A stretch of DNA of 60,568 nucleotides, counting the filler. It is 4 parts of 4 records of this genome, joined end to end, with 100 filler letters (N's around TTAATTAATTAA, not from the genome) between each part and the next. Parts side by side here need not be neighbours in the genome. Positions count along the whole stretch, not along the records: positions 1 to 27,214 come from DRR378314_2629; 3 more parts are not named here. The stretch is one strand, 5' to 3'. Below are positions 3,933 through 25,837 of this stretch, piece after piece. Position 1 is the first letter of the stretch; each line of letters begins with the position of its first letter. The notes below the pieces were generated by a model, which made no database searches, was not told the origin of the DNA, and saw nothing but the letters and a program-made list of their open reading frames with translations. Both the position numbers and the translations under genes were made by a program.

Positions 3933-5480
3933 TCAGGCGTGTGCAGTCTCGACGGTCTCTTCCGCCTCGGTCAGCGCTTCGCCTAAATCACCTTCCTCGG
4001 AATATCGATACCGCCCCAGAAACAGGAGTGGAACGGTCGAGACGAACAAGATGATCCCAGCCGTAGTGAGGGTAAATTGCCAATCCTTGCCAAGAAGCAG
4101 ACCGGTCTCCCACTCCACCAGCTTGATACCATTGCCGGTCGCCAAATTTGTCATGATGCCAGGGCCAAGACCGGCCCCCATGCCGAAGAAGCTGTAGATG
4201 GAACCGTAGATGGCGGAATAGGAGCGCATGCCAAAATACTTCGACACCATATAGGCCATGAAGTCGTACTCCACACCCGCACCGAACCCGATCATCAGGA
4301 TGGCAATTGTCGCCGTATTCGCATCCACGTCGGGATGACCCAGCATCCACAACGCAATTGCTGGCGAAGCAAGAAAGAAGAACGCCACAGCCGGGGCCCA
4401 GAACCGGTCGATCAGATAACCGCCGATAACTCGCCCTCCGAGAACTGCTAGGCCCGTCAATGTTGCCAGGCCAACTGCCTCATCCATGCCCATACCGGAT
4501 TGGGTCAGCACTTGCTCGATATTGGGAATAACAGCCCCTACCGCATACGAAATTGGCACGAAGCACAAAGCCAGAACCCAGAAACGCCAATGGCAAAGCG
4601 CCTGCCCCAACGTCATTCCTGGCAGAACAATGGCGTCACCATTCGCCTGCGTTTTGATTTCAGGTGGCCTGGTACCAACCTTGAAGAGCAGCATGCAGAC
4701 AATTGGAAGGAAGATGAGTGGGATATAGCCGAACGGAAGCAGGTATTCGAACCGCACTCCATTGTTTGATATGGACTGCAGAACCTGACGCACTACGATA
4801 CCTGTAAACCCGACGGCGCCAATCAAACTGATGGCGAGGATCGGCACCTTGAATTTGGTGATGGCTGATTCCGACGCAGGCGTATCGTCGACATCCCTCA
4901 AAGCGATGAGAGACAAGGGCAATGAAATGATCAGTGGCAGGAACCCAACAGCGACATATGCGGTGCGCCAGTCCGAATGCTGCACCATGAACTGCGCAAA
5001 ATATTTCGCCAGGGCCCCAAACACCCCGGTCGTAATAAGAGCGATCCCAAGTGCGATACCGCGATTGGACTTGAACCAGTTCGCAACTGGCCTGGTGAAG
5101 GTAATGGGCAGCGTGCCCACGCCAGAGATCGCCATGAGTAACCACAAGGCAATGTAAAGCGACTTCGAGCCCGTGTTCAGCGAGATCGCCATAAGCGACA
5201 ATGAGAATGTCACAATGGAGATAAGCGCTACACGCCGCGCTCCGAATTTTTCAGCAACGATCCCGATGATTGGCGACGCGGCCATGCTGCCAAATGTGTA
5301 GATCGCCAGCGCGTTGATGATGAACCCGACATCCCATCCCTCAGAGCCAAACTCTGCCAGCAACGGCGGAATGAATACTCCAATCGTGTAAAATGGCAGA
5401 GGCGACATCCCCAAGCCGATCCCAACGGAAGCGGCAGCCAGAACCGGCCAACCTCGCCGAAACTCTCCGGATTTCTCCAT
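3933..5480 (-). CDS. MFS transporter (OFA/MCT-like)
   Basis: Many hydrophobic helices, motif A (GIVAEKFGARRV and GYLIDRFWAP), WFKSNRGIALG, YFGMRSYSAIYG. ATG 5480 has an AGGAG RBS. Confidence 0.92.
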   Translation of the reverse strand: MEKSGEFRRGWPVLAAASVGIGLGMSPLPFYTIGVFIPPLLAEFGSEGWDVGFIINALAIYTFGSMAASPIIGIVAEKFGARRVALISIVTFSLSLMAISLNTGSKSLYIALWLLMAISGVGTLPITFTRPVANWFKSNRGIALGIALITTGVFGALAKYFAQFMVQHSDWRTAYVAVGFLPLIISLPLSLIALRDVDDTPASESAITKFKVPILAISLIGAVGFTGIVVRQVLQSISNNGVRFEYLLPFGYIPLIFLPIVCMLLFKVGTRPPEIKTQANGDAIVLPGMTLGQALCHWRFWVLALCFVPISYAVGAVIPNIEQVLTQSGMGMDEAVGLATLTGLAVLGGRVIGGYLIDRFWAPAVAFFFLASPAIALWMLGHPDVDANTATIAILMIGFGAGVEYDFMAYMVSKYFGMRSYSAIYGSIYSFFGMGAGLGPGIMTNLATGNGIKLVEWETGLLLGKDWQFTLTTAGIILFVSTVPLLFLGRYRYSEEGDLGEALTEAEETVETAHA

Positions 5481-5513
5481 TCGTGACGCTCCTGTCATTG
5501 ATCAATCGCTATA

Positions 5514-5525
5514 TTGGTATACCAA
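5514..5525. promoter_or_regulatory. Perfect palindrome TTGGTATACCAA upstream of the MFS gene; GntR-type operator (motif A)
   Basis: Seen directly. Related sites at 6748, 10579, 10851, 12557 and 13509. Confidence 0.7.
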
Positions 5526-5731
5526 ATAAGCTGCAGGTCGAGGCCAAAACTTCATAAATCGGCATTCCGCACAGTCGTGACTTGTTCTTTATCAAGTCTG
5601 CCAAACCTTGCATGGGCCGTTCCTCATAGAGGCGATTAGCCAATCAGCCCTGAATGGGGGGCCGAAAGCCCGATCGAGCGCTCAGGACAACTGAAGGGCG
5701 CCGGTTCGCTCAAATTAGGTCAGCCTTCGAT

Positions 5732-6679
5732 TTATGCAGGCTCGACGACCGACGCTCCTTCGAAACCAAGTGGCACACCCGCATTCGCAGTGAAGCCATA
5801 GAGTTCCTCTTCCGGCAGACCTTGCGCGAGCAGTTCACGCGCCTTGAACAAACCATCCAGATCCACGCCCGTTTTGACGCCCATCGATTCAAACATGAAG
5901 ACGAGGTCTTCAGTTACAATGTTGCCGCTGGCGCCAGGAGCCGTGGGGCAGCCCCCCAACCCGCCGAGTGAACTATCGAATGTGGTGATGCCTTCCTCAT
6001 ACGCGGCCAAAGCATTTGCGAGCCCCAATCCGCGCGTATTGTGCAAGTGAACACCTGTTACGTACTTTGCACCAATAGCCTCGCGCACAGAGCGGATCAG
6101 CTTACGCACAGACGTCGGATCACCATACCCAGTCGTATCTGAAATTCCGACTTCGCTGCACCCGGCCCCCATCAACCGTTCTGCACAATTCAGAATCACA
6201 CTCTCGGGAATCGCGCCCTCCAGCGTGCACCCGAAGGCTGTCGAAAGAGACCCCTCGAAATGCGGCCTTTTGCCCTCGGGCAAAGACTTGATCAGATCAG
6301 AAATGCGGCCGGCTTCTTCGATCACCTGATCATGTGTTCGACGGATATTTCTTATCGAATGCGTCTCGCTGACCGACATCGGAAGCGTGATCTTGTGCGC
6401 GCCAGACTTGATCGCCAGCTCTGCTCCTTTGAGATTCGGCACAAGAACCGCGACTTCCAGCCCCTGAATTTTTACTGCATTCTCAACGATTTCCGCCGTA
6501 TCGGCCATCTGAGGCAGAAGCTTCGGAGACACGAACGACCCGACTTCGATTTCCCGAAGGCCCGCTTCAGCCAGGGCGGCGATCCAACTTGTTTTCTTCT
6601 CTGTCGGCATGATCGTCTTGCAATTCTGCAATCCGTCGCGCGGACCCACTTCGCTGATAAGCACCTGATTTGCGGACAT
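5732..6679 (-). CDS. Hydroxymethylglutaryl-CoA lyase family (DRE-TIM) CoA-ester lyase
   Basis: EVGPRDGLQN, EVGSFVSPK, HLHNTRGLG, GGLGGCPTAPGASGNIVTEDL. Start ATG 6679 with GAAAGG RBS. Confidence 0.93.
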   Translation of the reverse strand: MSANQVLISEVGPRDGLQNCKTIMPTEKKTSWIAALAEAGLREIEVGSFVSPKLLPQMADTAEIVENAVKIQGLEVAVLVPNLKGAELAIKSGAHKITLPMSVSETHSIRNIRRTHDQVIEEAGRISDLIKSLPEGKRPHFEGSLSTAFGCTLEGAIPESVILNCAERLMGAGCSEVGISDTTGYGDPTSVRKLIRSVREAIGAKYVTGVHLHNTRGLGLANALAAYEEGITTFDSSLGGLGGCPTAPGASGNIVTEDLVFMFESMGVKTGVDLDGLFKARELLAQGLPEEELYGFTANAGVPLGFEGASVVEPA

Positions 6680-6747
6680 GCGATCGTACCTTTCGAAAAC
6701 AACAAACATTTCGCCTCAGGATTTCTCCAGAGAAGCAATTGCCATAA

Positions 6748-6759
6748 ATGATATATCCT
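6748..6759. promoter_or_regulatory. Motif A variant ATGATATATCCT between the divergent lyase and CoA-transferase genes
   Basis: Palindromic core GATATATC in a 111-nt divergent spacer; nearly identical to the site at 13509. Confidence 0.55.
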
Positions 6760-6790
6760 TTAAAACGGTTTGAAGCCAAGGGTATTGTTT

Positions 6791-7978
6791 ATGAATAATT
6801 CTTCGAAACCGCTGGACGGAATACGAGTGGTAGAGTTCACCCACATGGTGATGGGCCCCGCCGCAGGCCTCGTGCTTGCGGATCTCGGCGCAGAAGTCAT
6901 CAAGGTTGAGCCGATCGGGGGCGACAAAACCCGCCGTCTGAAAGGGTCCGGCGCGGGCTATTTCTCGATGTACAATCGGAACAAGAAGAGCCTTTCGATC
7001 AATCTGAAATCAGATGCGGGCGCTCGTGTAGCAAAAGAGCTGATCGAGAGAAGCGATGTATTTATCGAAAACTTCCGCCCCGGCGCGCTCGACAAGCTCG
7101 GTTTCGGATACGAAGAGCTCAGCAAGCTGAACCCTCGCTTGATCTACTGCTCTGAAAAAGGATTTTTGCCGGGGCCGTATGAGCACCGGACAGCGCTTGA
7201 CGAAGTCGCCCAGATGATGGGCGGGCTTGCCTATATGACAGGACCTCCCGGACGTCCGCTTCGCGCCGGCGCGTCAGTGATCGATGTCACGGGTGGCATG
7301 TTTGGGGCGATTGCAATTCTTGCCGCACTCCAACAAAGGCAGGTGACGGGCAAAGGGCAGCAGGTTTCCGCCTCCCTGTTCGAAACCACCGCTTTCCTCG
7401 TTGGACAGCATATGGCGCAGTACGCCGTCACCGGCAGCCCTGCAGCCCCAATGCCCACACGTGTATCGGCATGGGCCGTGTACGATGTGTTTGACGTCAA
7501 GGATGATGAGAAGGTTTTCGTCGGGGTCGTATCTGATGGTCAGTGGAAGTCCTTCTGTTCCGCATTTGGCCTTACCGAATGGGAAAACGACCCAAGTCTT
7601 GCGGAAAACAACGCGCGTGTTGCACGCCGCGAAGAAATCATCCCAGAACTCCGCCAACTGTTCCTGACCTTCACCAAGGCAGACCTCATGGACCGCCTCG
7701 AACAGACCGGCCTTCCGTTTGCACCCATTACCCGACCAGAGGACCTATTCGAAGACCCTCACCTGAACGCCCAGGGCGGTCTGCTTGAACTGGAGCTGCC
7801 AGAGGGCGGACAAGTGAAACTCCCCGCCATGCCATTGACGATGAATAATGAACGTTGCGGCCTGCGGCTCAATCCTCCGAAGATCGGAGAGCACAGCGTC
7901 GAAGTGTTGACATCTCTTGGATATTCTTCCGCTGAAATTGAAGAGTTGGTGGGCAACGAGCTCATCGACGCGCACTAA
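6791..7978 (+). CDS. Class III (CaiB/BaiF) CoA transferase
   Basis: PLDGIRVVEF, GPAAGLVLADLGAEVIKVEP, NRNKKS, ENFRPG, LDEVAQMMGG, catalytic Asp in SVIDVTGG, PKIGEHS. Confidence 0.95.
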   Translation: MNNSSKPLDGIRVVEFTHMVMGPAAGLVLADLGAEVIKVEPIGGDKTRRLKGSGAGYFSMYNRNKKSLSINLKSDAGARVAKELIERSDVFIENFRPGALDKLGFGYEELSKLNPRLIYCSEKGFLPGPYEHRTALDEVAQMMGGLAYMTGPPGRPLRAGASVIDVTGGMFGAIAILAALQQRQVTGKGQQVSASLFETTAFLVGQHMAQYAVTGSPAAPMPTRVSAWAVYDVFDVKDDEKVFVGVVSDGQWKSFCSAFGLTEWENDPSLAENNARVARREEIIPELRQLFLTFTKADLMDRLEQTGLPFAPITRPEDLFEDPHLNAQGGLLELELPEGGQVKLPAMPLTMNNERCGLRLNPPKIGEHSVEVLTSLGYSSAEIEELVGNELIDAH

Positions 7979-8357: not shown

Positions 8358-10517
8358 CTAGAATTCGTACCCAAGGTCGACACCGAAGGTGAGCGGTTCT
8401 GCAGCAAATACAGTTCCGCTACCCAGACCTGCACGCCAGTATGTTTGGTCGCCCACGTTCTTCGCCCAGACAGCAGCTGACCAACCAGCGTTGTCCTCGT
8501 ACTTGGCACGCAAGTTCAAGATTGGCGCAACTGTGTTGAATGCAGTGTACGGCGTGTTAGCAACCAGGGACCAGCTATCATCCTCGAAGCTGACGTCACC
8601 GGAGAAGATGAACTCACCGCGGTCCACAGCCAGCGTGTACAGTGCGTTGATGGCGCCCTTGTATTCAGGAGCATTCTTCATGCTGAGCCCGTAAGCACAT
8701 TCGAGGGTGACAACACCGTTACAGGCTGGCGTCGCACCTTGGTTCGTCAATGCAGCAGCAGTCGCCAGATCAAGTTCCGTGTATTCCGCATCCAGAAGGC
8801 CAAGGTTGGCACTGATCTGGAAGTTGTCTGTCGCCTGCCAGGTTGCTTCAAACTCCAGACCTTTGATTTCGGACTCTGGCACGTTGAAACGTGTGAAGCC
8901 CAAGCCCGGCACCGTAGCACTGATTTGCAAGCCTTCATACTTGTTCATGAATGCGGCGGCGTTGAAACGCACAGTGTCGTCGAACAGGTCGGTTTTCAGT
9001 CCGACTTCGAAGCTGTCGAGAGTTTCTTCTTCCACAGGAAGGAAGATCGCGGTGGAGCTGAAAGCATCCGGAGACCAGCCGCCGCCTTTGAAGCCAGTGG
9101 CATATTTGGCATAGGTCATGACACTTTCATTGAGGCGGTAGTCCGCACCAATAGAGAAGCTGACATTGTCATAATCAGCATCATCAACACGGGCGAAATT
9201 CAAACCCGAATTCAAGCCGTCAAACGTTTTGCTTTCCTGCGTGTAGCGAATACCGCCGGTCACAGAGAGCTGATCGTTGACATCGTATGTCCCCTGAGTG
9301 AACGCAGCATAGGACTCGGTTTCACCAGTGATCGAGAATGGGAAAAAGAAGATCGTATCGAGCTGAACGTTCTCTTTGTAGTAATACACACCGCTGATGA
9401 AGTTGAACGGACCATCATAATTTGAAGCGAAGGTAAATTCCTGGCTGACCTGGTCCTGATCATTTTCTTCAGAGAAGAATGAACCAATCAGCACGGATGT
9501 CAGATTGTTCAGCTCCCGATAGGCCGTGATCGACGTGAAGTCGAAAGAGCCAAGCTTACCTGCGATTTCAGCAGAAACGCCCTGGGATTGCGAACGCGAA
9601 TTGTACGCTGTGAAACAACCGGTGCGCTCAGTCGTGAAGTTACATTCCGTTCCTGGTGCGGGCTCGATGGTGTAGACGTCGCCATCGGTATCAAAACCTG
9701 GCGGCAGGGAATCTGGAATAGAATCCGACCGGTCGAGCGTACGGTCTGCAGTGATGTAGAGGCTCCAGTCGTCATCAAACTCGTGCAGCATGCTGGCACG
9801 AACAGACAAAAGGTCTGCGACACCGACATTGCGGCCTTCACCCGCACGATCGCCATTCGGAATAACATCCCAGAAACCGTCGCGTTCACGCTTCAGACCT
9901 GCAATACGGAATGCCGTTTTGTCGCCGACCTGAAAGTTGCCCATCGCGCGAAGATCGCGGCGATCATAGTTGCCCAGCGTGGCCCCTACTTTGCCGGAGT
10001 TCTCAAACTGCGGACGCACAGACTCAAGCTTGATGGCACCACCGATGGTGTTCCGGCCATAGAGCGTGCCCTGTGGACCACGAAGCACTTCGACCTGCTG
10101 AAGGTCGACGACATCAAGCAGTCCGCCGGCTGCACGGCCGAGATAGACCCCATCGACGTAGATACCTACGGCTGGGTCAACCATGCCGCGGCTTTCGTCT
10201 TCACCGACGCCGCGCAGGAAGACGCGAGCCGTGTTTGCCGTACCGGTGTTTGTACCAAGGTTGATGTTCGGAATCTGATATTGAAGATCCAGGACGCCGC
10301 GAACCTGGCGATCCTCAAGAATGTTTGCGTCCAGAGCAGTAACAGCAACAGGAACATCCTGCTGGCTCTGCTCAGTCCGTTGTGCCGTTACGGTCACGGC
10401 GCCAAGACGACGGGAATCGTCCTGCGCTTCTTCTTCCTCCTGAGCGAGTGCCGGGGCTGCGGCAAGAACCGACAGCATGGCGCCGCAAGCGACGGTCGTG
10501 AATAGTTTCCGATTCAT
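8358..10517 (-). CDS. TonB-dependent outer-membrane receptor
   Basis: Signal peptide (MNRKLF...APALA-Q), TonB-box region VTVTAQR, plug motif VEVLRGPQGTLYGRNTIGGAI, beta-barrel ending in YEF. ATG 10517 with AGAGG RBS. Confidence 0.96.
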   Translation of the reverse strand: MNRKLFTTVACGAMLSVLAAAPALAQEEEEAQDDSRRLGAVTVTAQRTEQSQQDVPVAVTALDANILEDRQVRGVLDLQYQIPNINLGTNTGTANTARVFLRGVGEDESRGMVDPAVGIYVDGVYLGRAAGGLLDVVDLQQVEVLRGPQGTLYGRNTIGGAIKLESVRPQFENSGKVGATLGNYDRRDLRAMGNFQVGDKTAFRIAGLKRERDGFWDVIPNGDRAGEGRNVGVADLLSVRASMLHEFDDDWSLYITADRTLDRSDSIPDSLPPGFDTDGDVYTIEPAPGTECNFTTERTGCFTAYNSRSQSQGVSAEIAGKLGSFDFTSITAYRELNNLTSVLIGSFFSEENDQDQVSQEFTFASNYDGPFNFISGVYYYKENVQLDTIFFFPFSITGETESYAAFTQGTYDVNDQLSVTGGIRYTQESKTFDGLNSGLNFARVDDADYDNVSFSIGADYRLNESVMTYAKYATGFKGGGWSPDAFSSTAIFLPVEEETLDSFEVGLKTDLFDDTVRFNAAAFMNKYEGLQISATVPGLGFTRFNVPESEIKGLEFEATWQATDNFQISANLGLLDAEYTELDLATAAALTNQGATPACNGVVTLECAYGLSMKNAPEYKGAINALYTLAVDRGEFIFSGDVSFEDDSWSLVANTPYTAFNTVAPILNLRAKYEDNAGWSAAVWAKNVGDQTYWRAGLGSGTVFAAEPLTFGVDLGYEF

Positions 10518-10578
10518 GTGTTTTCCTCTTTTGATCTGAAGACTGCTGCTCTCCCCACAGCATTTCGCCTCAGTTAAA

Positions 10579-10590
10579 AAGATATACCCT
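10579..10590. promoter_or_regulatory. Motif A variant AAGATATACCCT upstream of the receptor gene
   Basis: Core G-R-TATA-Y-C, about 60 nt from the receptor start codon. Confidence 0.45.
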
Positions 10591-10850
10591 TTCGGAATTT
10601 TCACAATCGCTCATTCGTGATTTAGCTTGAATGGTCTGATGTAGATAACATATTGGGCACCTGCGCACAGCGTTTGTTCGCCGCGTTTTCTTCAGTCGCA
10701 ACAGGGCTTTAGACTATTGGTGTGACTATCGCGCCACAGTTTTCGTCACATTTTCAAGGTGTTCCACTTTTCAGGATTAATCGGAGCCAAGCCTGGAACG
10801 GAATCCCCCCAATGCTCAGCGAAAGACCATTTGCTGAGCGGCTCTCTCTA

Positions 10851-11004: not shown

Positions 11005-11403
11005 ATGACTCCTCCCAAAACCGTCCCCCGCCTCGATCAACCATGCTTCCTTGTAATCTGCCGCGATGGTCCGGATTCAGCTGCACCTCGGGTCGAGCAT
11101 TTGAAGGCGCATCTCGATCACGTTGAGAAGCATTGGGAACGATACATCACCGCAGGCCCGATTCGAGATCCGGGCAAGGAAGCGCTCGTCGGATCCATTT
11201 TTCTCGTGCTGGCCGATTCTCTGGAGGATGCTCAAACGCTGATGAATGGTGACCCCTACCTCACCTGCGGCATGTATGAATCCATTGAGTACAAGGAATT
11301 CTCGAATGCGATCGGACGCTTCATGGGTGGGAAAACCTGGGAAAGCGCCGAAGCTGTCGCCCATCTGGCCGCTGGCGGGCCGACCAAACTCACAGCGGGA
11401 TAA
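11005..11403 (+). CDS. YciI-family protein (dimeric alpha+beta barrel)
   Basis: FLVICRD...RVEHLKAHL...AGP...GSIFLV...DPY pattern; AGGA RBS. Confidence 0.88.
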   Translation: MTPPKTVPRLDQPCFLVICRDGPDSAAPRVEHLKAHLDHVEKHWERYITAGPIRDPGKEALVGSIFLVLADSLEDAQTLMNGDPYLTCGMYESIEYKEFSNAIGRFMGGKTWESAEAVAHLAAGGPTKLTAG

Positions 11404-11529: not shown

Positions 11530-12552
11530 CTAGATCAGCCCCGCCTTGTCCAGCTTTTCGATAACGCGCAGCTGTCGGGATACATAATGGTCGCGGGCCG
11601 GAGGGTTCGCTCCATCTCCGAGGCCATTCTGTTCTGCTACGTCGAGCTTTCCATATGCTTGAGCCCATAGCTGCATCGGATGCCGTGACAGCAGGTTCGC
11701 CATACCTGGGCGCCGCCGAAATTCTCTCAATGAATCGAGGGAAATCTCCGCATACGCGACATTGCTTTCGCCAGTGCCTGCCCGCGCCAGAACCCGCCCC
11801 TTATAGTCAATGATTTCCGAACCTCCATCAGTCGAGTTCTCCGGAATATCAATGCCATATAGGCCACCAGAATTTGCTGAAACAATATAGGCAACGTTTT
11901 CCACAGCCCGCGCATGTCGTGTGATGGATTTGGGTGTCGGCAGTGGACTGGACACTTCAGAACTCGAATGCACCATCACTTCAGCACCCTTGCTGGCAAT
12001 CATCCTCGCAATTTCAGGGTACAGGATTTCTTCAGAAGCAATCGCTCCCAACTTACCAATCTCTGTATCCGCCACGGGGAACAAGGCATCCGCGCCATAG
12101 ATATCCAGATACTTGTCCCAGACATCGAAAGGAGATGGCGAAAACATCGAGATGAGTCGCCGGTATCTCAGTACGAGTTCGCCACTTGGCGAGAAGATGG
12201 TACATCCCTGAAAATATAATTCCGGGAAGTTCGGGTCGGTCTCATAATGGTTCCCTGCGAGGTAAACGCCATTGTCTGCGGCCGCTTTGGCAAGCGCCTC
12301 GTATTCTGGTCCATCAGGTGCCAAAGCCGCTTTCGCGATCCACTCCGGTGCAGTCTCGCCCCACGGAAACCCGGTTAGACTGTACTCCGGCAAGACGACA
12401 AGTTTGGTATCTGCGCCAAGAAACCGTTTTGAGTTGGCAATCTTGGCAGAAATTTCATCAATTTTTCCGAGTATTGACTTGCGTGCATCACTTGCTGTCA
12501 GACTGTTGACGGCGTGACATGCGATCTGGAGCGCTAAAGCAGAATAAGCCAT
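11530..12552 (-). CDS. Nitrilase/carbon-nitrogen hydrolase superfamily protein with non-canonical catalytic residues
   Basis: LVVLPEY, YRR (for YRK), FPVADTEIGKLGAIASEEILYPEIAR, GAEV, ARAVENVAYIVSAN, GGSEIIDYKG. Confidence 0.9.
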   Translation of the reverse strand: MAYSALALQIACHAVNSLTASDARKSILGKIDEISAKIANSKRFLGADTKLVVLPEYSLTGFPWGETAPEWIAKAALAPDGPEYEALAKAAADNGVYLAGNHYETDPNFPELYFQGCTIFSPSGELVLRYRRLISMFSPSPFDVWDKYLDIYGADALFPVADTEIGKLGAIASEEILYPEIARMIASKGAEVMVHSSSEVSSPLPTPKSITRHARAVENVAYIVSANSGGLYGIDIPENSTDGGSEIIDYKGRVLARAGTGESNVAYAEISLDSLREFRRRPGMANLLSRHPMQLWAQAYGKLDVAEQNGLGDGANPPARDHYVSRQLRVIEKLDKAGLI

Positions 12553-12556
12553 TCGA

Positions 12557-12568
12557 TTGGTATACCTT
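12557..12568. promoter_or_regulatory. Motif A site TTGGTATACCTT overlapping the nitrilase RBS, divergent from the first GntR gene
   Basis: 10 of 12 positions match the perfect palindrome at 5514. Confidence 0.65.
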
Positions 12569-12645: not shown

Positions 12646-13434
12646 ATGAGAGAAGACGCGCAATTGGCTCTATCGGCGAAAGACCTGGATGAGAACTCCA
12701 GCGTACCGCTTTACCAGCAGATCTACTCCAAGATCCGACACGCAATCGTATCGGGTGAAGTCGCACCGCAGTCTCGCCTGCCCGCTGAACAAGAGCTTGT
12801 TCAACGCCTTGGAGTTTCACGCATCACCGTAAAGCGCGCCTTCAATGAGCTTGCTATTGCGGGCCTGGTGCGCCGCTATCGAGGCCGCGGCACCGTGGTC
12901 ACGTATGACTCGTCCACGCCTACCGTCAAAGGCAGTTTTGAGAATTTGATCGATGGCCTGAAACGCATGGGTCTCGAAACAGAGGTTCAATTGCTGGACA
13001 CCGAAATCGTCAGCCCGAGCCCGGCCATAGCAGAAGCCTTGAAGCTGGGGCGCGGCGCCAGCGTTCAGCGAATTGTGCGACTGCGCCGGCTTGCTGAAGA
13101 GCCATTCTCTTATCTGGTAACCTACGTTCCAGAAGACATTGCCGAGACCTACACCGAGGACGATTTGGCAACAGCGAGCTTGATCGCACTCCTGGAGAAG
13201 GCTGGGCACCGCCCCTGTGAAGCCACACAAACAATCACGGCAGTCCCCGCTGAGCCTGCGGTTGCGGCAGTTCTTGGTGTCACAACCGGATCTCCGCTGT
13301 TGAGAATTCACCGCATCATGCAGGATGAGACCGGCCGCCCCGTTCAGGACATTACCGCCACCTATCGGGCGGACCGATTCCAATACGAAATGCGCCTCAC
13401 GCGTGAGAAGAATGCAGACTGGACCGCTGAGTAA
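12646..13434 (+). CDS. GntR-family regulator, HutC subfamily (wHTH + UTRA)
   Basis: PLYQQI, LPAEQEL, GVSRITVKRA, RGRGTVV, and a UTRA-like C-terminus (YRADRFQY). Start ATG 12646 chosen. Confidence 0.93.
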   Translation: MREDAQLALSAKDLDENSSVPLYQQIYSKIRHAIVSGEVAPQSRLPAEQELVQRLGVSRITVKRAFNELAIAGLVRRYRGRGTVVTYDSSTPTVKGSFENLIDGLKRMGLETEVQLLDTEIVSPSPAIAEALKLGRGASVQRIVRLRRLAEEPFSYLVTYVPEDIAETYTEDDLATASLIALLEKAGHRPCEATQTITAVPAEPAVAAVLGVTTGSPLLRIHRIMQDETGRPVQDITATYRADRFQYEMRLTREKNADWTAE

Positions 13435-13637: not shown

Positions 13638-15230
13638 ATGTCTGGAACCAACACGACCGAAACTCTCAACCAATTCAAATCTGTACTCACACAATTGCTG
13701 GGCCAGGACTCTGTGCGAGACGATTTGGCGACGAGAGAGCTATACAGTCAGGACATCTGGACAAAAGGCGAACTGGCCGAAATCGTCGTGTCTCCATCCT
13801 CACTGGAAGAGCTCTCCTCTGCAGCAGCTGCTGCAAATGAACGCAATATTCCATTGAATCCACGGGGGGGTGGAATGTCCTATACTGAAGGATACACGCC
13901 AGACCGTGAAGGCGTGGCCATTCTTGATATGATCAGGATGGATCGCATAATCGAGCTGAACACCGATGACATGTACGTCACGGTCGAAGCAGGTTGCACC
14001 TGGGAAACGCTTCACAAGGCACTGAGCGCAAAAGGCGTACGCACACCGTTCTGGGGTCCGCTCTCGGGGCTGACCTCCACAATCGGCGGCGGCCTATCTC
14101 AGAACAATGCATTCTTCGGCGCCGGAAAGTACGGAACCACCGGCGATAGCGTCCTCAGCGTTACGGTCGTTCTTGCGGACGGTACAATCGTTCGAACCGG
14201 CAGCGCGGGAACCGAAGGCGCTAAACCTTTCTGGCGTCACTATGGCCCGGATTTGACAGGCCTGTTCTGCGGTGATTGCGGTGTACTGGGCTATAAAGCC
14301 GAGATCACTTTGCGCCTTATCAAGGCCCCCCGCGAAGAGACATGGGCCAGCTATGAATTCGACACTGCAGCAGACTATGCCACTGCATTGTCAGCGCTGA
14401 TGCGAGAAGACATTGCTACCGAAATCTTTGGCTTTGATCCCACACTTACGCGTGTTCGTATGGCAAGGGCTTCCATGCTCTCGGATGCCAAAGCACTCAA
14501 AAACGTGATGAAGAAACAAGGTGGCCTCCTGTCTGCGCTCAAGGAAGGCGCGAAAGTGGCTATGGCTGGTCGTGGCTTCATGGACAATGCGAACTACAAC
14601 CTTCACTACACGGTTGAAGGTCACAGCAAGACCGGTGTGCAGGAAGAAATCGCAATACTGAACAAAGTGTGCGAAGCGCATGGCGGGAAATCGATAGAAA
14701 ACTCAATTCCGAAAATCATTCGTGCCAATCCGTTCGCGCCGTTGAACAGCATTCTAGGACCTTCGGGAGAGCGCTGGGTGCCCATTCATGGCATTGTTCC
14801 GGTGTCTGAAACACGAGACTGCCTCACTGAAATCGACCAGGCGTTTGACGCCATGCGGGCAGAGCTTGATCAGCACGGAGTGGTCACGGGCTACCTGCTG
14901 ACTTCCATGAGTACGACAGGCGTGATCATCGAACCTGTATTCCTGTGGCCTGAAGAATTGTTCGAACTTCATCGCCAGACCGTGGAGCCATCAATGCTGT
15001 CGAAAGTCGGCACACATGACGCGAATCCGGACGCCACGGCAACGGTCAGGAAAGCCCGGCAAGCGGTGTTGGACGTTTTCCGAGAGCACGGTGCTGCGCA
15101 CTTCCAGATCGGCAGAACCTATCCTTATCTTGAGACCCGCTCAGACTCTACCCGCGACCTTCTCGAGAACATCAAAGACATCGTCGACCCCCAACGCCTC
15201 ATCAATACCGGCGCGCTGGGTCTGGAGTAA
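13638..15230 (+). CDS. FAD-binding oxidoreductase, VAO/PCMH (FAD_binding_4) family
   Basis: PRGGGMSY, VTVEAG, TIGGGLSQN, VVLADG, YGPDLTGLFCGDCGVLG, C-terminal KDIVDPQRLINTG. AGGAGG RBS before ATG 13638. Confidence 0.92.
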   Translation: MSGTNTTETLNQFKSVLTQLLGQDSVRDDLATRELYSQDIWTKGELAEIVVSPSSLEELSSAAAAANERNIPLNPRGGGMSYTEGYTPDREGVAILDMIRMDRIIELNTDDMYVTVEAGCTWETLHKALSAKGVRTPFWGPLSGLTSTIGGGLSQNNAFFGAGKYGTTGDSVLSVTVVLADGTIVRTGSAGTEGAKPFWRHYGPDLTGLFCGDCGVLGYKAEITLRLIKAPREETWASYEFDTAADYATALSALMREDIATEIFGFDPTLTRVRMARASMLSDAKALKNVMKKQGGLLSALKEGAKVAMAGRGFMDNANYNLHYTVEGHSKTGVQEEIAILNKVCEAHGGKSIENSIPKIIRANPFAPLNSILGPSGERWVPIHGIVPVSETRDCLTEIDQAFDAMRAELDQHGVVTGYLLTSMSTTGVIIEPVFLWPEELFELHRQTVEPSMLSKVGTHDANPDATATVRKARQAVLDVFREHGAAHFQIGRTYPYLETRSDSTRDLLENIKDIVDPQRLINTGALGLE

Positions 15231-15233: not shown

Positions 15234-16658
15234 ATGTCGCAAAACATCTCCATTCGGAATCCTCGAACCGGTGAGGCTGACTTCTCATTGGCCGCCATGG
15301 ATGCTCGGCTTGTCACAAGCACCGGTCAGGCACTGCGGCAGGGTCAACGTGCTTGGCATAATCTTGGCTTTCAAGGTCGCGCGGAACGGTTGCGCGATCT
15401 GGCCAATGCGCTGCTGGCCCATATTGACCCGATTTCGGCGGCTCTGGAAATTGACACCGGACGGCGTCGCATCGCCAGAATGGAAGTCGAAGCTGTGGCG
15501 TCGTCGCTCGTCGCGTGGGCGAACCAGGCACCGGCCAACGCCGAGGGCGACTGGATACAAGGCATCAGCAATCCGGCAATCAAACATAAATCCCAACTCA
15601 TCCCCTATGGTCTTGTTGGAGTGATCAGCCCGTGGAACTTCCCATTAATCTTGTCGATGATCGACGCAGCACCCGCCCTGCTTGCTGGGTGCTCGGTCAT
15701 GATAAAGCCAAGCGAAGTCACCTCTCGCTTCGTGAAGCCACTGGAAGATGCCATTGAGACTGCAGGGCTGTCATCCGTTATCCGTCTGGTAACTGGCTCC
15801 GGAGAAACGGGTGCCGCGTTGGTCGATACGGTCGACGCCGTTTGCTTTACAGGCTCCGTCCCCACCGGCCGCAAGGTCGCGATACAGGCCGCGGGCAGGC
15901 TCATCCCGGCCTTCCTTGAGCTCGGAGGCAAAGACCCCCTGATCGTGTTGGCCTCATCAGACATTGAAGCCGCAACGGATGCGGCTCTGAGAGGGTCTGC
16001 GCAATCTACCGGCCAGGCGTGTCAATCGATCGAACGGATCTACGTTGATGCAGCCATCTACGATTCATTCCTGGAACGACTGGTCGAAAAAGCTGAGACC
16101 ACCCGCCTCAACGCATACGACATTTCAAAAGGCGAACTCGGTCCGATCATCTTCGATAAGCAGGCCGACATACTCGCCCGCCATATCGAAGACGCGAAAC
16201 AGAATGGCGCGATAGTTCTGACAGGTGGCGACATTGAGCGACACATGGGCGGCGTCTGGCTACGTCCAACTGTGTTGTGTGAGGTGACGCACGACATGCA
16301 AGTAATGACAGAAGAAACCTTTGGCCCCATCCTGCCCGTCATGAAGTTCCAGACCGTCGAAGAAGCCATAAAGCTCGCAAATGATACAGATTACGGCCTA
16401 TCGGGCGCGGTATTTGCCGGCACGCTGGAGGAGGCTGAATCTGTTGCCCAACACATGGATGCAGGCGCTATTTCCCTGAATGACGCAGCACTGACAGCAC
16501 TTTTTCACGAAGCCGAAAAGAACGCGTTCAAATCCTCCGGATTGGGCGGTAGTCGAATGGGCGCGGCTGGCCTAAACAGGTTCCTCCGGCGCAAGGCGAT
16601 CATCGCTAACACGATTGCCCCGCTGCCCCTGTCTGCTCTGGCCGAGGACGCCTCATGA
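15234..16658 (+). CDS. NAD(P)-dependent aldehyde dehydrogenase
   Basis: ISPWNFP, KPSE, FTGS, catalytic Glu in LELGGKD, catalytic Cys in GQACQS, EETFGP. Confidence 0.96.
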   Translation: MSQNISIRNPRTGEADFSLAAMDARLVTSTGQALRQGQRAWHNLGFQGRAERLRDLANALLAHIDPISAALEIDTGRRRIARMEVEAVASSLVAWANQAPANAEGDWIQGISNPAIKHKSQLIPYGLVGVISPWNFPLILSMIDAAPALLAGCSVMIKPSEVTSRFVKPLEDAIETAGLSSVIRLVTGSGETGAALVDTVDAVCFTGSVPTGRKVAIQAAGRLIPAFLELGGKDPLIVLASSDIEAATDAALRGSAQSTGQACQSIERIYVDAAIYDSFLERLVEKAETTRLNAYDISKGELGPIIFDKQADILARHIEDAKQNGAIVLTGGDIERHMGGVWLRPTVLCEVTHDMQVMTEETFGPILPVMKFQTVEEAIKLANDTDYGLSGAVFAGTLEEAESVAQHMDAGAISLNDAALTALFHEAEKNAFKSSGLGGSRMGAAGLNRFLRRKAIIANTIAPLPLSALAEDAS

Positions 16659-17440
16659 ATTCTTCACGCATTTACTCCGAAATATCGAATGGCATCGGAG
16701 AACTCATTCTGAACAAGCCGGAAAAGCGCAATGCGCTTTCCAGCGACATGTGGGGTGCTATCCCCGAACTCATCGCTGAGTTTCAGGAAAACCGTGATGT
16801 CAAAACCGTGATCATTCATGGCGGCACGGCAGGAGCGTTTGCTGCTGGAGCAGACATATCTGAATTTGAGTCAATCTATGCCACCGCAGAAAGCGCCGCA
16901 AATTCCGCCGACCTGATTTCAAATGCGCTCACCAGCATTGCAGAGTGTAGAAAACCGGTAATTGCGGCGATTGACGGAGCATGCGTCGGCGGCGGCGTCA
17001 GTGTCGCGCTTGCAGCCGACATCAGAGTGGCGGGTGAAGGCTCAAGATTTGCGGTGACACCGGCGAAACTTGGACTCGTATACCCGGTCGATGACACAAG
17101 ACGATTGATCGAAGCCGTCGGGGTACCTGCCGCTAAAGATATACTTCTAACCGGCAGACTGTTTCTGACAGAGGAAGCCTTTCGACTTGGATTAGTCACG
17201 CGCATGGTCGCCGCTGGGGAGGCCCTTGCTACCGCCAGAACACTCGCCGAGCAGATCGGCCAGAACTCCCTATGGTCTCATGGCGCAACCAAGCGCTCAT
17301 TCAAAGCTGTCAACGAAGGCTGGACCGACAAGACTGCTGAAGCAAAGGCTCTTTTCCTGGAGAGCTTTTCAAACGAAGACTTCGAGGAGGGCTACACAGC
17401 CTTTCTTGGCAAGCGACCCGCAAAATTTACTTACCGCTGA
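16655..17440 (+). CDS. Crotonase (enoyl-CoA hydratase/isomerase) superfamily protein
   Basis: NKPEKRNAL, AGADISEF, KPVIAAIDGACVGGG, ADIRVA, AFLGKRPAKF. ATGA overlap with the ALDH stop. Confidence 0.93.
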   Translation: MNSSRIYSEISNGIGELILNKPEKRNALSSDMWGAIPELIAEFQENRDVKTVIIHGGTAGAFAAGADISEFESIYATAESAANSADLISNALTSIAECRKPVIAAIDGACVGGGVSVALAADIRVAGEGSRFAVTPAKLGLVYPVDDTRRLIEAVGVPAAKDILLTGRLFLTEEAFRLGLVTRMVAAGEALATARTLAEQIGQNSLWSHGATKRSFKAVNEGWTDKTAEAKALFLESFSNEDFEEGYTAFLGKRPAKFTYR

Positions 17441-17448: not shown

Positions 17449-18678
17449 CTATTCGAAACCAGGAGGCATAGGCGGTTTGCCGCACAAGGTTTCGATCGCG
17501 GCAGCGACTTCCAGCGTCAATCGATCCGCTCCATAAGGGCCTATGACCTGAACAGAATGGGGCAGCCGGGTTTGCGCATCAATTCCTGTGCAGACAGCCG
17601 TCGCTGGCAGAGCAGCAAAGTTCGCCCACGCCGTGAAGTCCGCTTGGTTGGCAGGCACACGATCATCGAAAGAAAATGCCTGCTGCGGCGCCGTAGGCGC
17701 TATCACTACATCGACTTCTTGAAACAACGCGTCAGCAGCCGCTCGCACACGTTCGATATGCTTGTAGGCTGTCGAAACGTCATCTGGTGGCCGGCCTACC
17801 CCCCACTCGAGCAAGCTGCGAAACGACGGTGTGAACCCTTCGGGATTAGATTGCAGCTGTTCCTTGTGCACAGAGAACGCCTCAACTTCCGAAATCAGTA
17901 GTCCCGCGCGGCGTGATTTCCCATACGCGTACTCCGGTGGAGCAACCTTCTCTGGTTCCAAACCGGCCTCAGATGCCAGCAGACCGATAAAGCGCTCAAA
18001 TGCCTCCGACACAGGATCAGTCAACGCTATTTCGGAATCGCCGTCCCAAAACCCGACTCTTAGCTGGTTCAATTGTGACGGGATGAGCTCCCCCGGCTTT
18101 CCCCAATCTGCCAGAACGTGCATGGACTGCCAAAGCGCATTAATATTCCGCGCGAGTGGGCCGACATGATCTAGCGAGTGAGACAACGCCATCACTCCAT
18201 CATTCGGAACGACACCCGTGGTGGGCTTATGCCCCTGCACACCGCAATAAGCAGCCGGGATTCGTATACTGCCCATTGTGTCTGAGCCGAGCGCCACATC
18301 ACAGAGTCCAGCCGCTACGGCTGCGCCTGACCCACCAGAGGATCCGCCTGGTGTGAAGCCATACCTCCACGGGTTATGAGTGCGCCCATAAGCCAAATTG
18401 TCAGTCGTCGCACCAAGAGCTGCCTCATGCATATTCAAGGTGCCGAGTACCGAACCTCCAGAGCTTTTTATGCGTTCTACCACCGTCGCGTCACGCGGCG
18501 CAATGTTATCTCGATAAGCCTCTATACCCGCAGTAAGAGGCAATCCGGAGACAGAGATATTTGACTTCACGCCATACGATGGACCATCGCCGAGATCGCC
18601 TTCGCCAAGATCAACAAAGGCGTTTAGACGAGGATTGAACTTCTCAATTCTCCTCTTGTATTCAGACCCGGTTCTCAC
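17449..18678 (-). CDS. Amidase-signature family amidase
   Basis: Lys in GVKSNI, GGSSGGS, LGSDTMGSIRIPAAYCG (Ser-cisSer-Lys triad intact). GTG start overlaps the upstream stop (GTGA). Confidence 0.93.
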   Translation of the reverse strand: MRTGSEYKRRIEKFNPRLNAFVDLGEGDLGDGPSYGVKSNISVSGLPLTAGIEAYRDNIAPRDATVVERIKSSGGSVLGTLNMHEAALGATTDNLAYGRTHNPWRYGFTPGGSSGGSGAAVAAGLCDVALGSDTMGSIRIPAAYCGVQGHKPTTGVVPNDGVMALSHSLDHVGPLARNINALWQSMHVLADWGKPGELIPSQLNQLRVGFWDGDSEIALTDPVSEAFERFIGLLASEAGLEPEKVAPPEYAYGKSRRAGLLISEVEAFSVHKEQLQSNPEGFTPSFRSLLEWGVGRPPDDVSTAYKHIERVRAAADALFQEVDVVIAPTAPQQAFSFDDRVPANQADFTAWANFAALPATAVCTGIDAQTRLPHSVQVIGPYGADRLTLEVAAAIETLCGKPPMPPGFE

Positions 18679-20063
18679 TTGAATCTCTCGTCAATCAAGC
18701 GAACTGGCTTCTGGCGAACTTCTGTCTGCGTGAGTGGCGCGAGGTCTCCCGGCGCTGATAATTCGATACTGCAGTCGATACCAATGCTACGCTTGAGAAT
18801 GGCTTTAAAGCGATCTGCGACCTCTTCACCGCGATCCCCATTCACCTCCGCGCATACGATGAATTCGTCTCTGCCCTGTTCGTCCCGAACAGCTTTGCAG
18901 ATAAATTCGCCAGCGAAACTCGAATCCGCCTCAAGCAACGGTCCCATCGCCTGAGGGAATACATTGATGCCGCGAATCTTCACCATGTTGTCTGAGCGAC
19001 CAAGAAACCCTTCTATGCGCTGCAAGTTCAGACCAAGAGACGATTTTCCAGATACGATCTTTGTTACGTCGTGCGTATTGAAACGAATGACCGGATATAC
19101 ATCATCCTTGTGAATACATGTGCAGACAATATCTCCCGGTTGGCCATCGGGGACTGGTTTTCCAGTGTCGATGTCACAGACTTCAACAATCTGGCCGTCT
19201 TCCATGACGTATAGCCCGTCCCGATCCGGCCCTTCTCCCGCAACCACTCCGGTATCACCAACTCCGTACCAATCGAAGCAGTCAACACCGCCCCACGCTT
19301 CAGAAAGCGCGTTCTTGTCTTCTCGCCCGAGATGACCAGAAATCATTCGAATGTTCAAATCCCGCACTGGATCGATACCCAACTCTGTTGCCACGCGCGC
19401 CAACTTTTTGATGTAGTCGGCAAAACCAATGATGACAGTGGTACCGAAGTCCCGCATCAGCTCGACTTGTTTTGCAGAGCGCGTTTCTACGCCCGTGCCG
19501 GCCGACATAAAAATCGCATTCGTCCAATGAGTCACGGCCTCACGAACGTAGTGCCCTCCATTGATCATGCCGTGCCCGTACACTGAGTGGACAACATCAT
19601 CCGGTCGCATGCCCTGGAACTGGTAAAGCCTTCCGAGCATCAAGCTTTGAACCTCCCGGGATTTCGCACCAAACAGCAACACCTGAGGATTTCCCGTCGT
19701 GCCCGATGTCGTATGCATGATCACAGGCTGGCGACCATTTGGACCGCTTTCAATTCCCCCGAAATCCCCAAATGGCGGATTGGCATCGATCGATGCCATG
19801 ATATCTGATTTGTCGAAAACGGGCAGACTGTTCAGCGTCTCCAGGCCTTTGATATCACCCGGCTCGATGCCAGCCTCGCCCCACAGCCGCTGATAGAACG
19901 GTATCTGCCAAGCACGAGCAACACATCGCTTGAAAAGCCTATCCTGATGGGCGCGAATCTCATCGCGGCTTTGCTTTGCAAACTGAAGGAAGTCCTGACC
20001 AATCGGGTGATCCTTACGCAGCTCTGCCCAGTTGATCGCATCATGATAGACGTTGTGTTTCAT
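18675..20063 (-). CDS. Phenylacetate-CoA ligase-like (PaaK family) acyl-CoA ligase
   Basis: PFYQRLW, TTSGTTGNP, WYG, RFNTHD, GRSDNMVKIRGINVFP, C-terminal KPVRLID. Start ATG 20063. Confidence 0.9.
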   Translation of the reverse strand: MKHNVYHDAINWAELRKDHPIGQDFLQFAKQSRDEIRAHQDRLFKRCVARAWQIPFYQRLWGEAGIEPGDIKGLETLNSLPVFDKSDIMASIDANPPFGDFGGIESGPNGRQPVIMHTTSGTTGNPQVLLFGAKSREVQSLMLGRLYQFQGMRPDDVVHSVYGHGMINGGHYVREAVTHWTNAIFMSAGTGVETRSAKQVELMRDFGTTVIIGFADYIKKLARVATELGIDPVRDLNIRMISGHLGREDKNALSEAWGGVDCFDWYGVGDTGVVAGEGPDRDGLYVMEDGQIVEVCDIDTGKPVPDGQPGDIVCTCIHKDDVYPVIRFNTHDVTKIVSGKSSLGLNLQRIEGFLGRSDNMVKIRGINVFPQAMGPLLEADSSFAGEFICKAVRDEQGRDEFIVCAEVNGDRGEEVADRFKAILKRSIGIDCSIELSAPGDLAPLTQTEVRQKPVRLIDERFK

Positions 20064-20115
20064 ACTAGGGCACCCTTTGCGTCCGCAAGACTGTAATGTT
20101 TGATGGCTGATATAA

Positions 20116-21429
20116 TCATGACAATAGATGTTCACGTATCAGGACGAGTAGATCACTCGATAAAGATTCGGCTTTATCGATGATTTGTTGGCTTTGATTT
20201 TGCTCGACACCCGAATGATCCATCAATGCATAGGCCTTCTGGTGGATCTGCGCTTTCGTTAGGGGATTCTCAGGATCACCGAGTGCATCAGGGGCTTCCG
20301 CCGAGACTTGGCTTCCATCTTGGAAGACAATCGCAACTTGGGCACCGTATCTCGCGGGGTATGCAGACGCGTACGGCTCTCCGCATTGAACGGAAACCTT
20401 GCTCCTGATTTCTGCGATATCTTGCCGATCTATTGACAAACTGTCGAAATCAGCGATTTCCGGCCGCCCTTTGATAAGAACCGTCGCCACACTATGTTGA
20501 AGCGAGAATTTGGCTTCTATCGTAGATTTTGGGTCAGGCCGATCACAGAATGTCAAAGCGTCAGAATAGGTACCCACTTCGACCTGATAAACATTGGTCA
20601 AATCCACTCCGCTCTCGAACAGTTCGAGCGCTGCGTCGATGGCGGCGTGCGCATGACGACATGCGGCCCATGGCTTGAAGCTGACTTGTTCAATCTGCCA
20701 GTCGTACTCATACGTTGACAAAACTGCTTCAGGGTCTGCCTCCGGTGCACAAGCGGCGAAAAAACCTTGTTGACCCTCGAGAATTGAAAGCGGCCCTTTG
20801 AAGCCGGCAGCCGCCAAATTCGCCGAGTCGACGCCTGCCCTCGCAGCGTTGGCTGTGTGTAATTGCTTCCCCATACTTTCAGGCTCATGCCGCGTTTGCC
20901 ACAAACCAGAAGCTTGGCTCATTGCAAGTGCCAGTGCATGAGATGTCTCCACGGGGCTCAACTGCAACAATCTCGCGCAAGCAGCTGCAGCCCCGACCGA
21001 ACCGCATGTTCCAGTCGTATGCCACAGCTTATAGTGGCCTGGCCCGGTGGCACGACCGAGCCGGATCGTCGCCTCATATCCAGAGACGATCGCTTCTGGT
21101 AGTCGGTTCAGACGCTCCGGATCTTCAAGGCACATTGCCAGCGCGGCAGGAATGATAGACGGCCCCGGATGGAGAATGGCACGCTTGTCGACGTCATCCA
21201 TTTCCAGAACGTTGCCGAGTACACCCAAATAAAACGCATTGGAACTCGCATAGTCTTTGCGTACCCGCATCGCTGCTTTTGCAACGGCCTCCTGACTGCC
21301 GGCAATGGCACAACCAAGCCAGTCAATCAGGTGCAGTATTGCCCGCTCCTGAATGGCTTCGCTTACAGGCCGGGATACTAAACTGGCCAAAGACTGAATT
21401 ATGGTGGGGTTAGCTATTTGTCCGGACAT
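20116..21429 (-). CDS. MmgE/PrpD family protein
   Basis: DWLGCAIAG, LEMDD, HPG, GYE, WHTTGTCG, KQLH, ILEGQQGF, FKPWAACRHAH, AKFSL, GDPENPL. Confidence 0.93.
   Translation of the reverse strand: MSGQIANPTIIQSLASLVSRPVSEAIQERAILHLIDWLGCAIAGSQEAVAKAAMRVRKDYASSNAFYLGVLGNVLEMDDVDKRAILHPGPSIIPAALAMCLEDPERLNRLPEAIVSGYEATIRLGRATGPGHYKLWHTTGTCGSVGAAAACARLLQLSPVETSHALALAMSQASGLWQTRHEPESMGKQLHTANAARAGVDSANLAAAGFKGPLSILEGQQGFFAACAPEADPEAVLSTYEYDWQIEQVSFKPWAACRHAHAAIDAALELFESGVDLTNVYQVEVGTYSDALTFCDRPDPKSTIEAKFSLQHSVATVLIKGRPEIADFDSLSIDRQDIAEIRSKVSVQCGEPYASAYPARYGAQVAIVFQDGSQVSAEAPDALGDPENPLTKAQIHQKAYALMDHSGVEQNQSQQIIDKAESLSSDLLVLIREHLLS
21418..21429. promoter_or_regulatory. Motif B site TTGTCCGGACAT overlapping the MmgE/PrpD start codon, divergent from the second GntR gene
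   Basis: 11 of 12 positions match TTGTCCGGACAA. Confidence 0.65.
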
Positions 21430-21610
21430 TTTATCTTTTTACCATTTTGCGCGCATAAGAAAACCCACTAAATGGCGATGCGCGCGATAGCGGATGTATT
21501 GCGCAATCTTATTCAAGACTTGACTGTTTTTGTGTCAGAACTGCTCTATTGAACAATCCACTCGAACGTGCGGTTCGTGTAGCTTTTATCCAGAGGACGC
21601 CCACAAGCTC

Positions 21611-22333
21611 ATGCCATCACGAAACACCCCTCGTTACCGCGTATTGGCAGACCAACTCAAAAAGGACATCCTGTCCGGCAGGCTTAAACCTGGCGACCAA
21701 CTGCAAACAGAACTCGAACTATGTGATATACATAACATCTCACGATATACCGCCAGAGAGGCCCTACGCATTCTGTCTGAGGAAGGACTGATTGCAAGAC
21801 GACGCGGCGCGGGTACCGTGGTGGCAGAACTGCACGCGCCCGCATTCGCTCAACCGATTGGTGATTTCGACTCCATCCTGAAGTACGCGAGGGACGCTCA
21901 TTTTGAACTTCACTCGACGCGCACAGCGGAACGAGAAGAGCTGACCAATATTGGTTTGAAAGGACGCTATACGCTGTTTGAAGGAGTGCGCAGACAGGAA
22001 ACGGCTCCGCCAATCGCGATGACAAAAATATACGCCCTATCGACTCTGGCTCCCGATAAAGAAACTCTTGTAACGCTGCAAACCTCAATCTCGGAATGGA
22101 TCGAAAAGACCCACTCCATACCCGTAAACAAAGTCAGTCAACGCATGGAAGCTGTTGCCCTATCTCGAAATGAAGCGAAGGCTTTGCAGGTAGAAAAGAG
22201 CTCGCCCGCACTCAAGACGACTCGTAGATATTTTGATCCAACTGGAAAAGTCGTCCTCTACTCGGAAAGCCTTCACCCTTCCGGAAGATTTGTCTATGAA
22301 ATGCAACTCGATCGAAAACGCAACAGAGAATGA
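21611..22333 (+). CDS. GntR-family regulator, HutC subfamily (wHTH + UTRA)
   Basis: PRYRVLADQL, LQTELEL, ISRYTAREAL, RRRGAGTVV, C-terminal SLHPSGRFVY. GAGGA RBS before ATG 21611. Confidence 0.93.
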   Translation: MPSRNTPRYRVLADQLKKDILSGRLKPGDQLQTELELCDIHNISRYTAREALRILSEEGLIARRRGAGTVVAELHAPAFAQPIGDFDSILKYARDAHFELHSTRTAEREELTNIGLKGRYTLFEGVRRQETAPPIAMTKIYALSTLAPDKETLVTLQTSISEWIEKTHSIPVNKVSQRMEAVALSRNEAKALQVEKSSPALKTTRRYFDPTGKVVLYSESLHPSGRFVYEMQLDRKRNRE

Positions 22334-22340
22334 CGCAAAC

Positions 22341-25827: not shown

Positions 25828-25837
25828 CGCGGGGCCC

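Follow-up and report, generated by a model that had tools for sequence, protein, structure and literature searches.

The window analyzed here, a stretch of 60,568 nucleotides including filler, consists of contigs joined at 27215 to 27314, 45057 to 45156, and 50953 to 51052 by N-padded 12-base stop linkers. Bases 1 to 27214 are bacterial, and two stretches within them are 98.5% identical to Hyphomonas atlantica 22II1-22F38; the rest of the window is eukaryotic and encodes kinesin and eIF3a domains. A Hyphomonas contig among eukaryotic contigs indicates a companion or contaminant in the assembly. This contig, from a marine bacterium, carries a nitrilase-fold gene (the Ser173 gene) that sits in a catabolic cluster and lies divergent from a GntR/UTRA regulator (Table 1).

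Table 1. Features of the Hyphomonas contig, with positions counted along the window
Feature	Position	Strand	Basis or remark
Nitrilase-fold protein, Glu-Arg-Ser clade (P0001), 340 aa	11530..12552	-	ORF, alignments, Pfam, model, Foldseek
Glu56, catalytic-base position (AmiE Glu59)	12385..12387	-	Alignment
Gln115, in place of Asn of the FNT/YNT motif; serine-clade-specific	12208..12210	-	Row counts
Arg132, catalytic-Lys (oxyanion) position; also in Cys-bearing sister clade	12157..12159	-	Alignment
Asp143, second catalytic acid position (AmiE Glu142)	12124..12126	-	Alignment
Ser173, nucleophile elbow (AmiE Cys166)	12034..12036	-	Alignment
Glu174 (Glu or Asp in serine clade)	12031..12033	-	Row counts
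Glu199, invariant acid, probable pocket-wall position (after PMC4812014, in excerpt)	11956..11958	-	Row counts
Lys208, clade-specific; Trp in most Cys-bearing relatives	11929..11931	-	Row counts
Candidate GntR operator TTGGTATACCTT, imperfect palindrome, overlaps weak ribosome-binding site	12557..12568	.	
Second candidate operator copy, perfect 12-bp palindrome, 16 nt upstream of MFS gene	5514..5525	.	
GntR/UTRA regulator, divergent; probable start at second ATG of ORF from 12586	12646..13434	+	
FAD-linked oxidase; probable start at internal ATG	13641..15230	+	
Aldehyde dehydrogenase, commonest neighbor	15234..16658	+	
Enoyl-CoA hydratase family protein	16655..17440	+	
Amidase-signature family protein	17449..18678	-	
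PaaK-like CoA ligase	18675..20135	-	
MmgE/PrpD family protein	20116..21429	-	
Second GntR, two class III CoA transferases, acyl-CoA dehydrogenase, MaoC (Ich-like), CitE (Ccl-like)	21530..27188	.	Ich and Ccl models both below cut-off
YciI family protein	11005..11403	+	
TonB-dependent receptor	8358..10604	-	
MFS transporter, HMG-CoA-lyase-like protein, class III CoA transferase	3933..7978	.	

By descent and fold, the Ser173 protein is a nitrilase superfamily homolog. CN_hydrolase (PF00795; 120 bits against a cut-off of 23.2) was its sole Pfam match, and with this family alone matched, neither an amidase-signature nor an alpha/beta serine hydrolase domain was found. The AlphaFold model has a pLDDT of 96, and its best Foldseek match is 2uxy (TM 0.72), to which structure comparison gave a Z of 33.1 and an rmsd of 2.8 over 290 residues; the fold outside the triad is intact, as a preliminary description of this DNA had stated. 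That description had also placed Glu56, Arg132, and Ser173 at the positions of the Glu-Lys-Cys triad, and alignments together with structure comparison confirm the assignment. The three residues lie in the motifs LPEY (residues 54 to 57), YRRL (130 to 133), and IASEEILYPE (171 to 180), with Arg132 encoded by CGA and Ser173 by TCT. Aliphatic amidases have the triad Glu59-Lys134-Cys166 (numbering from PMC11732141, in excerpt). In alignments to the solved ones, Arg132 falls on Lys134, Ser173 on the nucleophile Cys, and Asp143 on Glu142; Asp143 also aligns with the Asp of 4lf0, an E142D mutant. The catalytic Glu (Glu56) and the second acid (Asp143) are present, while Lys and Cys are absent, and we therefore do not class the protein as a canonical Glu-Lys-Cys member. 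Its scores with the NCBIfam equivalogs for AmiE (78 bits against a cut-off of 427), AmiF (82 against 406), AguB (53 against 410), and deaminated-glutathione amidase (44 against 355) all fall below threshold. That another cysteine occupies the active site is unlikely: the protein has only C12 (Cys in 107 of 121 rows) and C117 (24 of 121), and neither is invariant.

The unusual triad is a property of a clade. The first homolog search, which was unselected for Ser, returned 4637 proteins at E ≤ 0.001 among 8000 scored candidates. Among the query and the best 120 of these (56 to 100% identity), all 121 rows have Ser173, and each of the 120 rows that cover positions 56 and 132 has Glu and Arg there, bearing out the conservation among orthologs that the preliminary description had proposed as a check. 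In a pool of proteins and loci at ≥45% identity, Ser occurs in 264 of 264 rows covering the site; 10 of 274 rows did not cover it, rows with fewer than 120 aligned positions were excluded, and the pool includes 80 loci found by a scan with three seeds, one of them holding the Ser motif. Median pairwise identity within the serine clade is only 56%, and catalytic positions 56, 104, 132, 143, and 175 are 99 to 100% conserved. The window gene is under purifying selection: in comparisons with two orthologs, dN is 0.16 to 0.18 and dS is near or at saturation. Across 117 loci, Ser173 has a TCN codon in 93 and an AGY codon in 24. Other conserved serines (e.g., 198, 225, and 245) likewise use both codon families, which weakens such usage as an argument special to Ser173.

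Members of the serine clade occur in Proteobacteria, Actinomycetota, and Cyanobacteria, named examples including Niveispirillum, Phenylobacterium, Actinomadura, Streptosporangium, Leptolyngbya, and Anabaena. A profile matched 33 of 151 Hyphomonas-family genomes at E 1e-30, with Glu-Arg-Ser in all 30 loci returned by the search; in a phylum sample, 8 of 401 genomes matched, three to four of them from the Hyphomonas family. An ESM Atlas search with the Ser173 protein gave unnamed CN_hydrolase clusters only. The wider clade presumably resembles the uncharacterized CDD subgroup cd07582 (nitrilase_4), whose consensus we take to be Lys/Cys; nothing relevant was found in a literature search that included this accession. 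The literature searched, which left out most subscription journals and so does not establish absence from print, yielded no account of either a Glu-Arg-Ser or a Glu-Arg-Cys branch, nor any of the gene cluster. We conclude that the Glu-Arg-Ser proteins constitute a real, widespread, and uncharacterized catalytic-site variant of the nitrilase superfamily.

The preliminary description treated Lys-to-Arg and Cys-to-Ser as a paired substitution, a view that the relatives contradict. Among domain rows of 50%-identity representatives, the triad states are Glu-Lys-Cys (61), Glu-Arg-Ser (15), Glu-Arg-Cys (14), Glu-Lys-Ala (8), and Glu-Lys-Ser (7); another 14 fragments show Arg-Ser, and the remaining rows are partial or degenerate. 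A search with an Arg-Cys query found Arg plus Cys in 119 of 120 matches, so that Arg in place of the Lys does not preclude conservation of the nucleophile. Both a FastTree phylogeny of 149 rows and a quick IQ-TREE phylogeny of 43 of these rows, with triad columns kept in each, part Lys from Arg proteins and place the serine clade (SH-aLRT support of 99 in the latter) among Arg-Cys rows. Since Arg is common to the sister clade and the serine clade is nested within it, Lys-to-Arg came first, with Cys retained, and the changes were sequential. The large Glu-Arg-Cys clade (P0381 to P0499, L018, L023, and L028) is itself noncanonical in its triad and has an invariant Gly after the Cys.

The serine is accompanied by other changes that the preliminary description had missed, namely, a clade-specific acid at 174, Lys208, and Gln115. 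Positions 57, 115, 173, 174, 177, and 208 are fixed in the serine clade and different in Cys relatives, although Tyr57 is not unique to the clade because AmiE has it too. Position 115 is Gln in 248 of 248 serine-clade rows and Asn in 21 of 22 Glu-Arg-Cys and 62 of 67 Glu-Lys-Cys rows. Residue 174 is aromatic in most Lys-Cys relatives and Gly in most Arg-Cys relatives, and Lys208 is nearly invariant in the serine clade; Gly174, Asn115, and Trp208 occur in 117 of the 120 sister-clade matches. Among 109 new matches near the base of the clade, 104 have serine, all with Gln115, Glu/Asp174, and Lys208; four are Arg-Cys and lack Gln115, the acid at 174, and Lys208; and the last, a degenerate-looking relative with Ala173, has also lost Lys208. 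Most Cys relatives pair an aromatic residue or Gly at 174 with Trp at 208, from which we infer that the two residues touch. Both trees also contain a small separate group of three Arg-Ser rows without Glu174 and Lys208, and Ser thus arises without these changes as well.

The wider clade is rich in deviant forms. Three Rhodospirillaceae genomes (G003, G004, and G005) have 12 to 24 matches each to one profile, a strong expansion. Stand-alone Glu-Lys-Ala paralogs and tandems with one degenerate domain (L031, L033, L038, and L039; P0186 to P0254) are probable pseudoenzymes. A second deviant nitrilase-fold type, ENS, has Asn at the Lys position and an elbow without Cys (L072:1157-2293, L087:2756-3763, L124:59-1270, and L037:1369-2559); its genes adjoin the serine gene in three loci, and some of the N termini are signal-like. 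The repeated production of Ala, Gly, and Ser states and of the ENS type indicates that covalent catalysis is often lost in this wider clade.

Gene context was surveyed in 60 loci of ≥9 kb, which were not dereplicated. Aldehyde dehydrogenase genes were present in 37, GntR in 25, FAD oxidase in 24, and a membrane protein of no known family in 20; at least one of CpeT, DUF3598-like, DUF1838, and DUF3108-like genes was present in 30, and 14 carried none of the cluster genes tested. Ring-opening neighbors were in the minority (PuuE-like in 11, isochorismatase or LeuCD in 14). Hyphomonas beringensis shares the block found in the window and additionally carries PuuE-like genes of the deacetylase fold, an isochorismatase, and LeuCD. 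The window is without the DUF3108-like gene, the PuuE-like pair, the isochorismatase, and LeuCD at 11403 to 11530 and 10604 to 11005, where H. beringensis has them. Also missing from the window is a membrane protein of ∼220 residues without a Pfam or NCBIfam match, which lies between the GntR and FAD oxidase genes in relatives (e.g., L001:6353-7015). The nearest matches of the H. beringensis isochorismatase are N-carbamoylsarcosine amidohydrolases together with 4l07 and 3ot4, two structures that we take to be maleamate amidohydrolases. Judged by the established functions of their families, the neighbors (ring-opening and half-amide hydrolases, a maleate-type hydratase, CoA transferases, and C-C lyases) hint at a route from an N-heterocycle to (alkyl)maleate. 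A bilin or pyrrole substrate is a guess, since the DUF3598 matches are weak (E of 0.004 and 0.069) and the fold test was uninformative: the DUF3598-like neighbor gave a poor model (pLDDT of 54) with no significant match in a fold search. The DUF3108-like neighbor retrieved only hypothetical clusters from the ESM Atlas, the CpeT-family neighbor had no sequence match among solved structures, and the FAD oxidase has only distant solved relatives.

The preliminary description also credited the Ser173 gene with a ribosome-binding site and an operator. The former exists, as a weak AAGG that lies 12 nt before the ATG; the latter is a candidate only. Its pattern has 3 matches in the window against 0.88 expected, and 7 of 100 shuffles reach 3, which is not significant alone; a TATACCAA-like half-site recurs upstream of several orthologs. 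Scans for sigma-70 promoters and terminators performed at chance level, and an Rfam search gave no match.

In canonical members, the Glu acts as base and a second Glu assists, and the oxyanion hole is made up of the Lys together with the backbone NH of the residue that follows the Cys (PMC4812014 and PMC10741476, both in excerpt). Each of these roles has an invariant occupant in the serine clade (Glu56, Arg132, Asp143, and Ser173), as judged from the alignments, and the pocket appears to have gained an acid and a lysine. The explanation we favor, for which we put the chances at even, is that the protein is a hydrolase active on its own, that its catabolic cluster, controlled by GntR, probably serves the breakdown of an N-heterocycle, and that Ser173 is the covalent nucleophile on an amide or imide. 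Ser173 would attack an amide-type carbonyl, most likely an activated one (a cyclic imide, lactam, or N-acyl or carbamoyl group) formed during N-heterocycle breakdown. Glu56, backed by Asp143, would serve as base, Arg132 and the backbone NH of residue 174 would form the oxyanion hole, and an acyl-ester would replace the thioester intermediate. Gln115, the acid at 174, and Lys208 may adjust the base, or they may reshape the acyl pocket, to make a hydroxyl an effective nucleophile. The more specific C-C hydrolase function offered in the preliminary description is supported by nothing in the present analysis.

The main objection to covalent serine catalysis, to which we give an even chance, is experimental, as Cys-to-Ser inactivates canonical members: the excerpted reports describe human NIT2 C153S (PMC12864753) and beta-ureidopropionase C233S (PMC10741476) as inactive and the activity of MtCPA C158S as "strongly diminished" (PMC4812014). 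Invariance, moreover, is equally expected of a ligand-binding site, and both noncovalent catalysis and a binding-only role explain the conservation almost as well as a covalent serine does. It is possible, though we think it distinctly less probable than an even chance, that the enzyme is active without a covalent serine intermediate; Ser173 and Arg132 would then only bind or polarize the substrate while Glu56, Glu174, or Lys208 activates water or performs a lyase, isomerase, or decarboxylase step. The inertness of serine at the nucleophile position in those canonical enzymes speaks for this reading, as do the new acid beside the elbow and the new lysine, the residue after the nucleophile being one that lines the substrate pocket of MtCPA (PMC4812014, in excerpt). 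However, the base, second acid, and oxyanion cation of canonical enzymes all have counterparts at the aligned positions, and no Ala, Gly, or Thr replaces Ser in the 264 close rows, the Ala173 row found later being the one exception. A noncatalytic role as a ligand-binding or regulatory protein, one that would retain an intermediate of the pathway or attach to an unrelated enzyme of the cluster, seems to us unlikely. In its favor, canonical Cys-to-Ser mutants retain substrate binding (PMC4812014 and PMC10741476, in excerpt), the wider clade has its probable pseudoenzymes, and the cluster already holds other amide hydrolases and a dedicated regulator. Against it, no single neighbor is constant, the best, aldehyde dehydrogenase, being present in 37 of the 60 loci, and the catalytic residues taken together vary less than those of the Ala-type paralogs, in which, as in the dead domains of tandems, pocket positions vary.

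Two further possibilities fare worse. That the protein is the dead subunit of a hetero-oligomer, with a Cys-bearing paralog of the same clade as active partner, is very improbable. In its favor, tandem fusions that join a Glu-Lys-Cys domain to a degenerate one occur commonly in the wider clade, the three expanded Rhodospirillaceae genomes include Cys paralogs, and an ENS paralog adjoins the serine gene in 3 loci. Against this, sister paralogs, where present, score 1e-41 to 1e-97, and 10 of the 14 genomes that have an intact serine gene and in which all candidates were scored (genome completeness not reported) have no second match below E 1e-12; one of the others has weaker matches (1e-28 and 1e-18), and the remaining three are the Rhodospirillaceae with many paralogs. 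An obligate sister partner is therefore unlikely, and this arrangement is largely rejected. Decay or sequence error is hardly credible. The copy in the H. atlantica type strain is broken, with a premature stop at codon 71 and truncation near residue 151, and the catabolic cluster around it has been deleted in its entirety, to either side of the GntR gene (L009 7058-8523), which makes this strain a natural knockout. The window copy, however, is whole, and a protein identical to it (P0002) is recorded from 15 contigs, which excludes an assembly error; the clade-wide invariance of Ser and Arg and the dN and dS values reject decay, in agreement with the preliminary description.

An extended form of the serine-nucleophile reading is speculative, and we regard it as improbable: Lys208, held by the acid at 174, might be a new base for Ser173, and the cluster might belong to an undescribed aerobic pathway from pyrrole- or bilin-derived rings through maleimides to alkylmaleates. 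The pathway part draws on the PuuE-like, maleamate-amidase-like, and LeuCD-like neighbors, the CpeT/DUF3598-like/DUF1838/DUF3108-like genes, and the cyanobacterial members.

A review states, in the excerpt available, that the Glu-Lys-Cys triad occurs in all superfamily members (PMC11732141). Cys-to-Ser is the standard way to inactivate nitrilase-superfamily enzymes, and the serine clade may be a natural switch to serine chemistry; together with its Glu-Arg-Cys sister and the changes at 115, 174, and 208, it offers a ready-made series on a cysteine-to-serine hydrolase switch and could be a source of oxidation-resistant amidases. Even if the proteins are noncovalent or noncatalytic, several hundred now called "nitrilase" or "predicted amidohydrolase" would have to be annotated differently, and the cluster points to a catabolic pathway, as yet unassigned, in aquatic and soil bacteria.

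Among known systems, AguB/MtCPA, NIT2, and beta-ureidopropionase have the same fold and, in the excerpted reports, supplied the mapping of the mechanism (PMC4812014 and PMC10741476), but Cys is the nucleophile in every one of them, and its replacement with Ser abolishes or nearly abolishes activity. The closest solved structures are AmiE (2uxy and 2plq) and AmiF (2dyu and 5g3o), with Z of 31.5 to 33.1 and with the Glu, the second acid, and the elbow in register; identity to these is ∼25%, and the Ser173 protein has Arg for Lys and Ser for Cys. The sister clade is made up of uncharacterized Glu-Arg-Cys proteins (e.g., P0148, 32% identical, and P0130), which have Arg at the Lys position, Asp143, Glu175, and His195 in common with the serine clade and differ in keeping Cys and in having Gly174, Asn115, and Trp208; one Glu-Arg-Cys copy adjoins the same accessory gene families as the serine clade. 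Serine hydrolases with an acidic base do exist in unrelated folds, namely, sedolisin (Ser-Glu-Asp) and patatin/cPLA2 (Ser-Asp plus Arg), in which a carboxylate-activated serine works with a cationic or acidic oxyanion site, and to these the proposed Ser173 chemistry would stand in analogy only.
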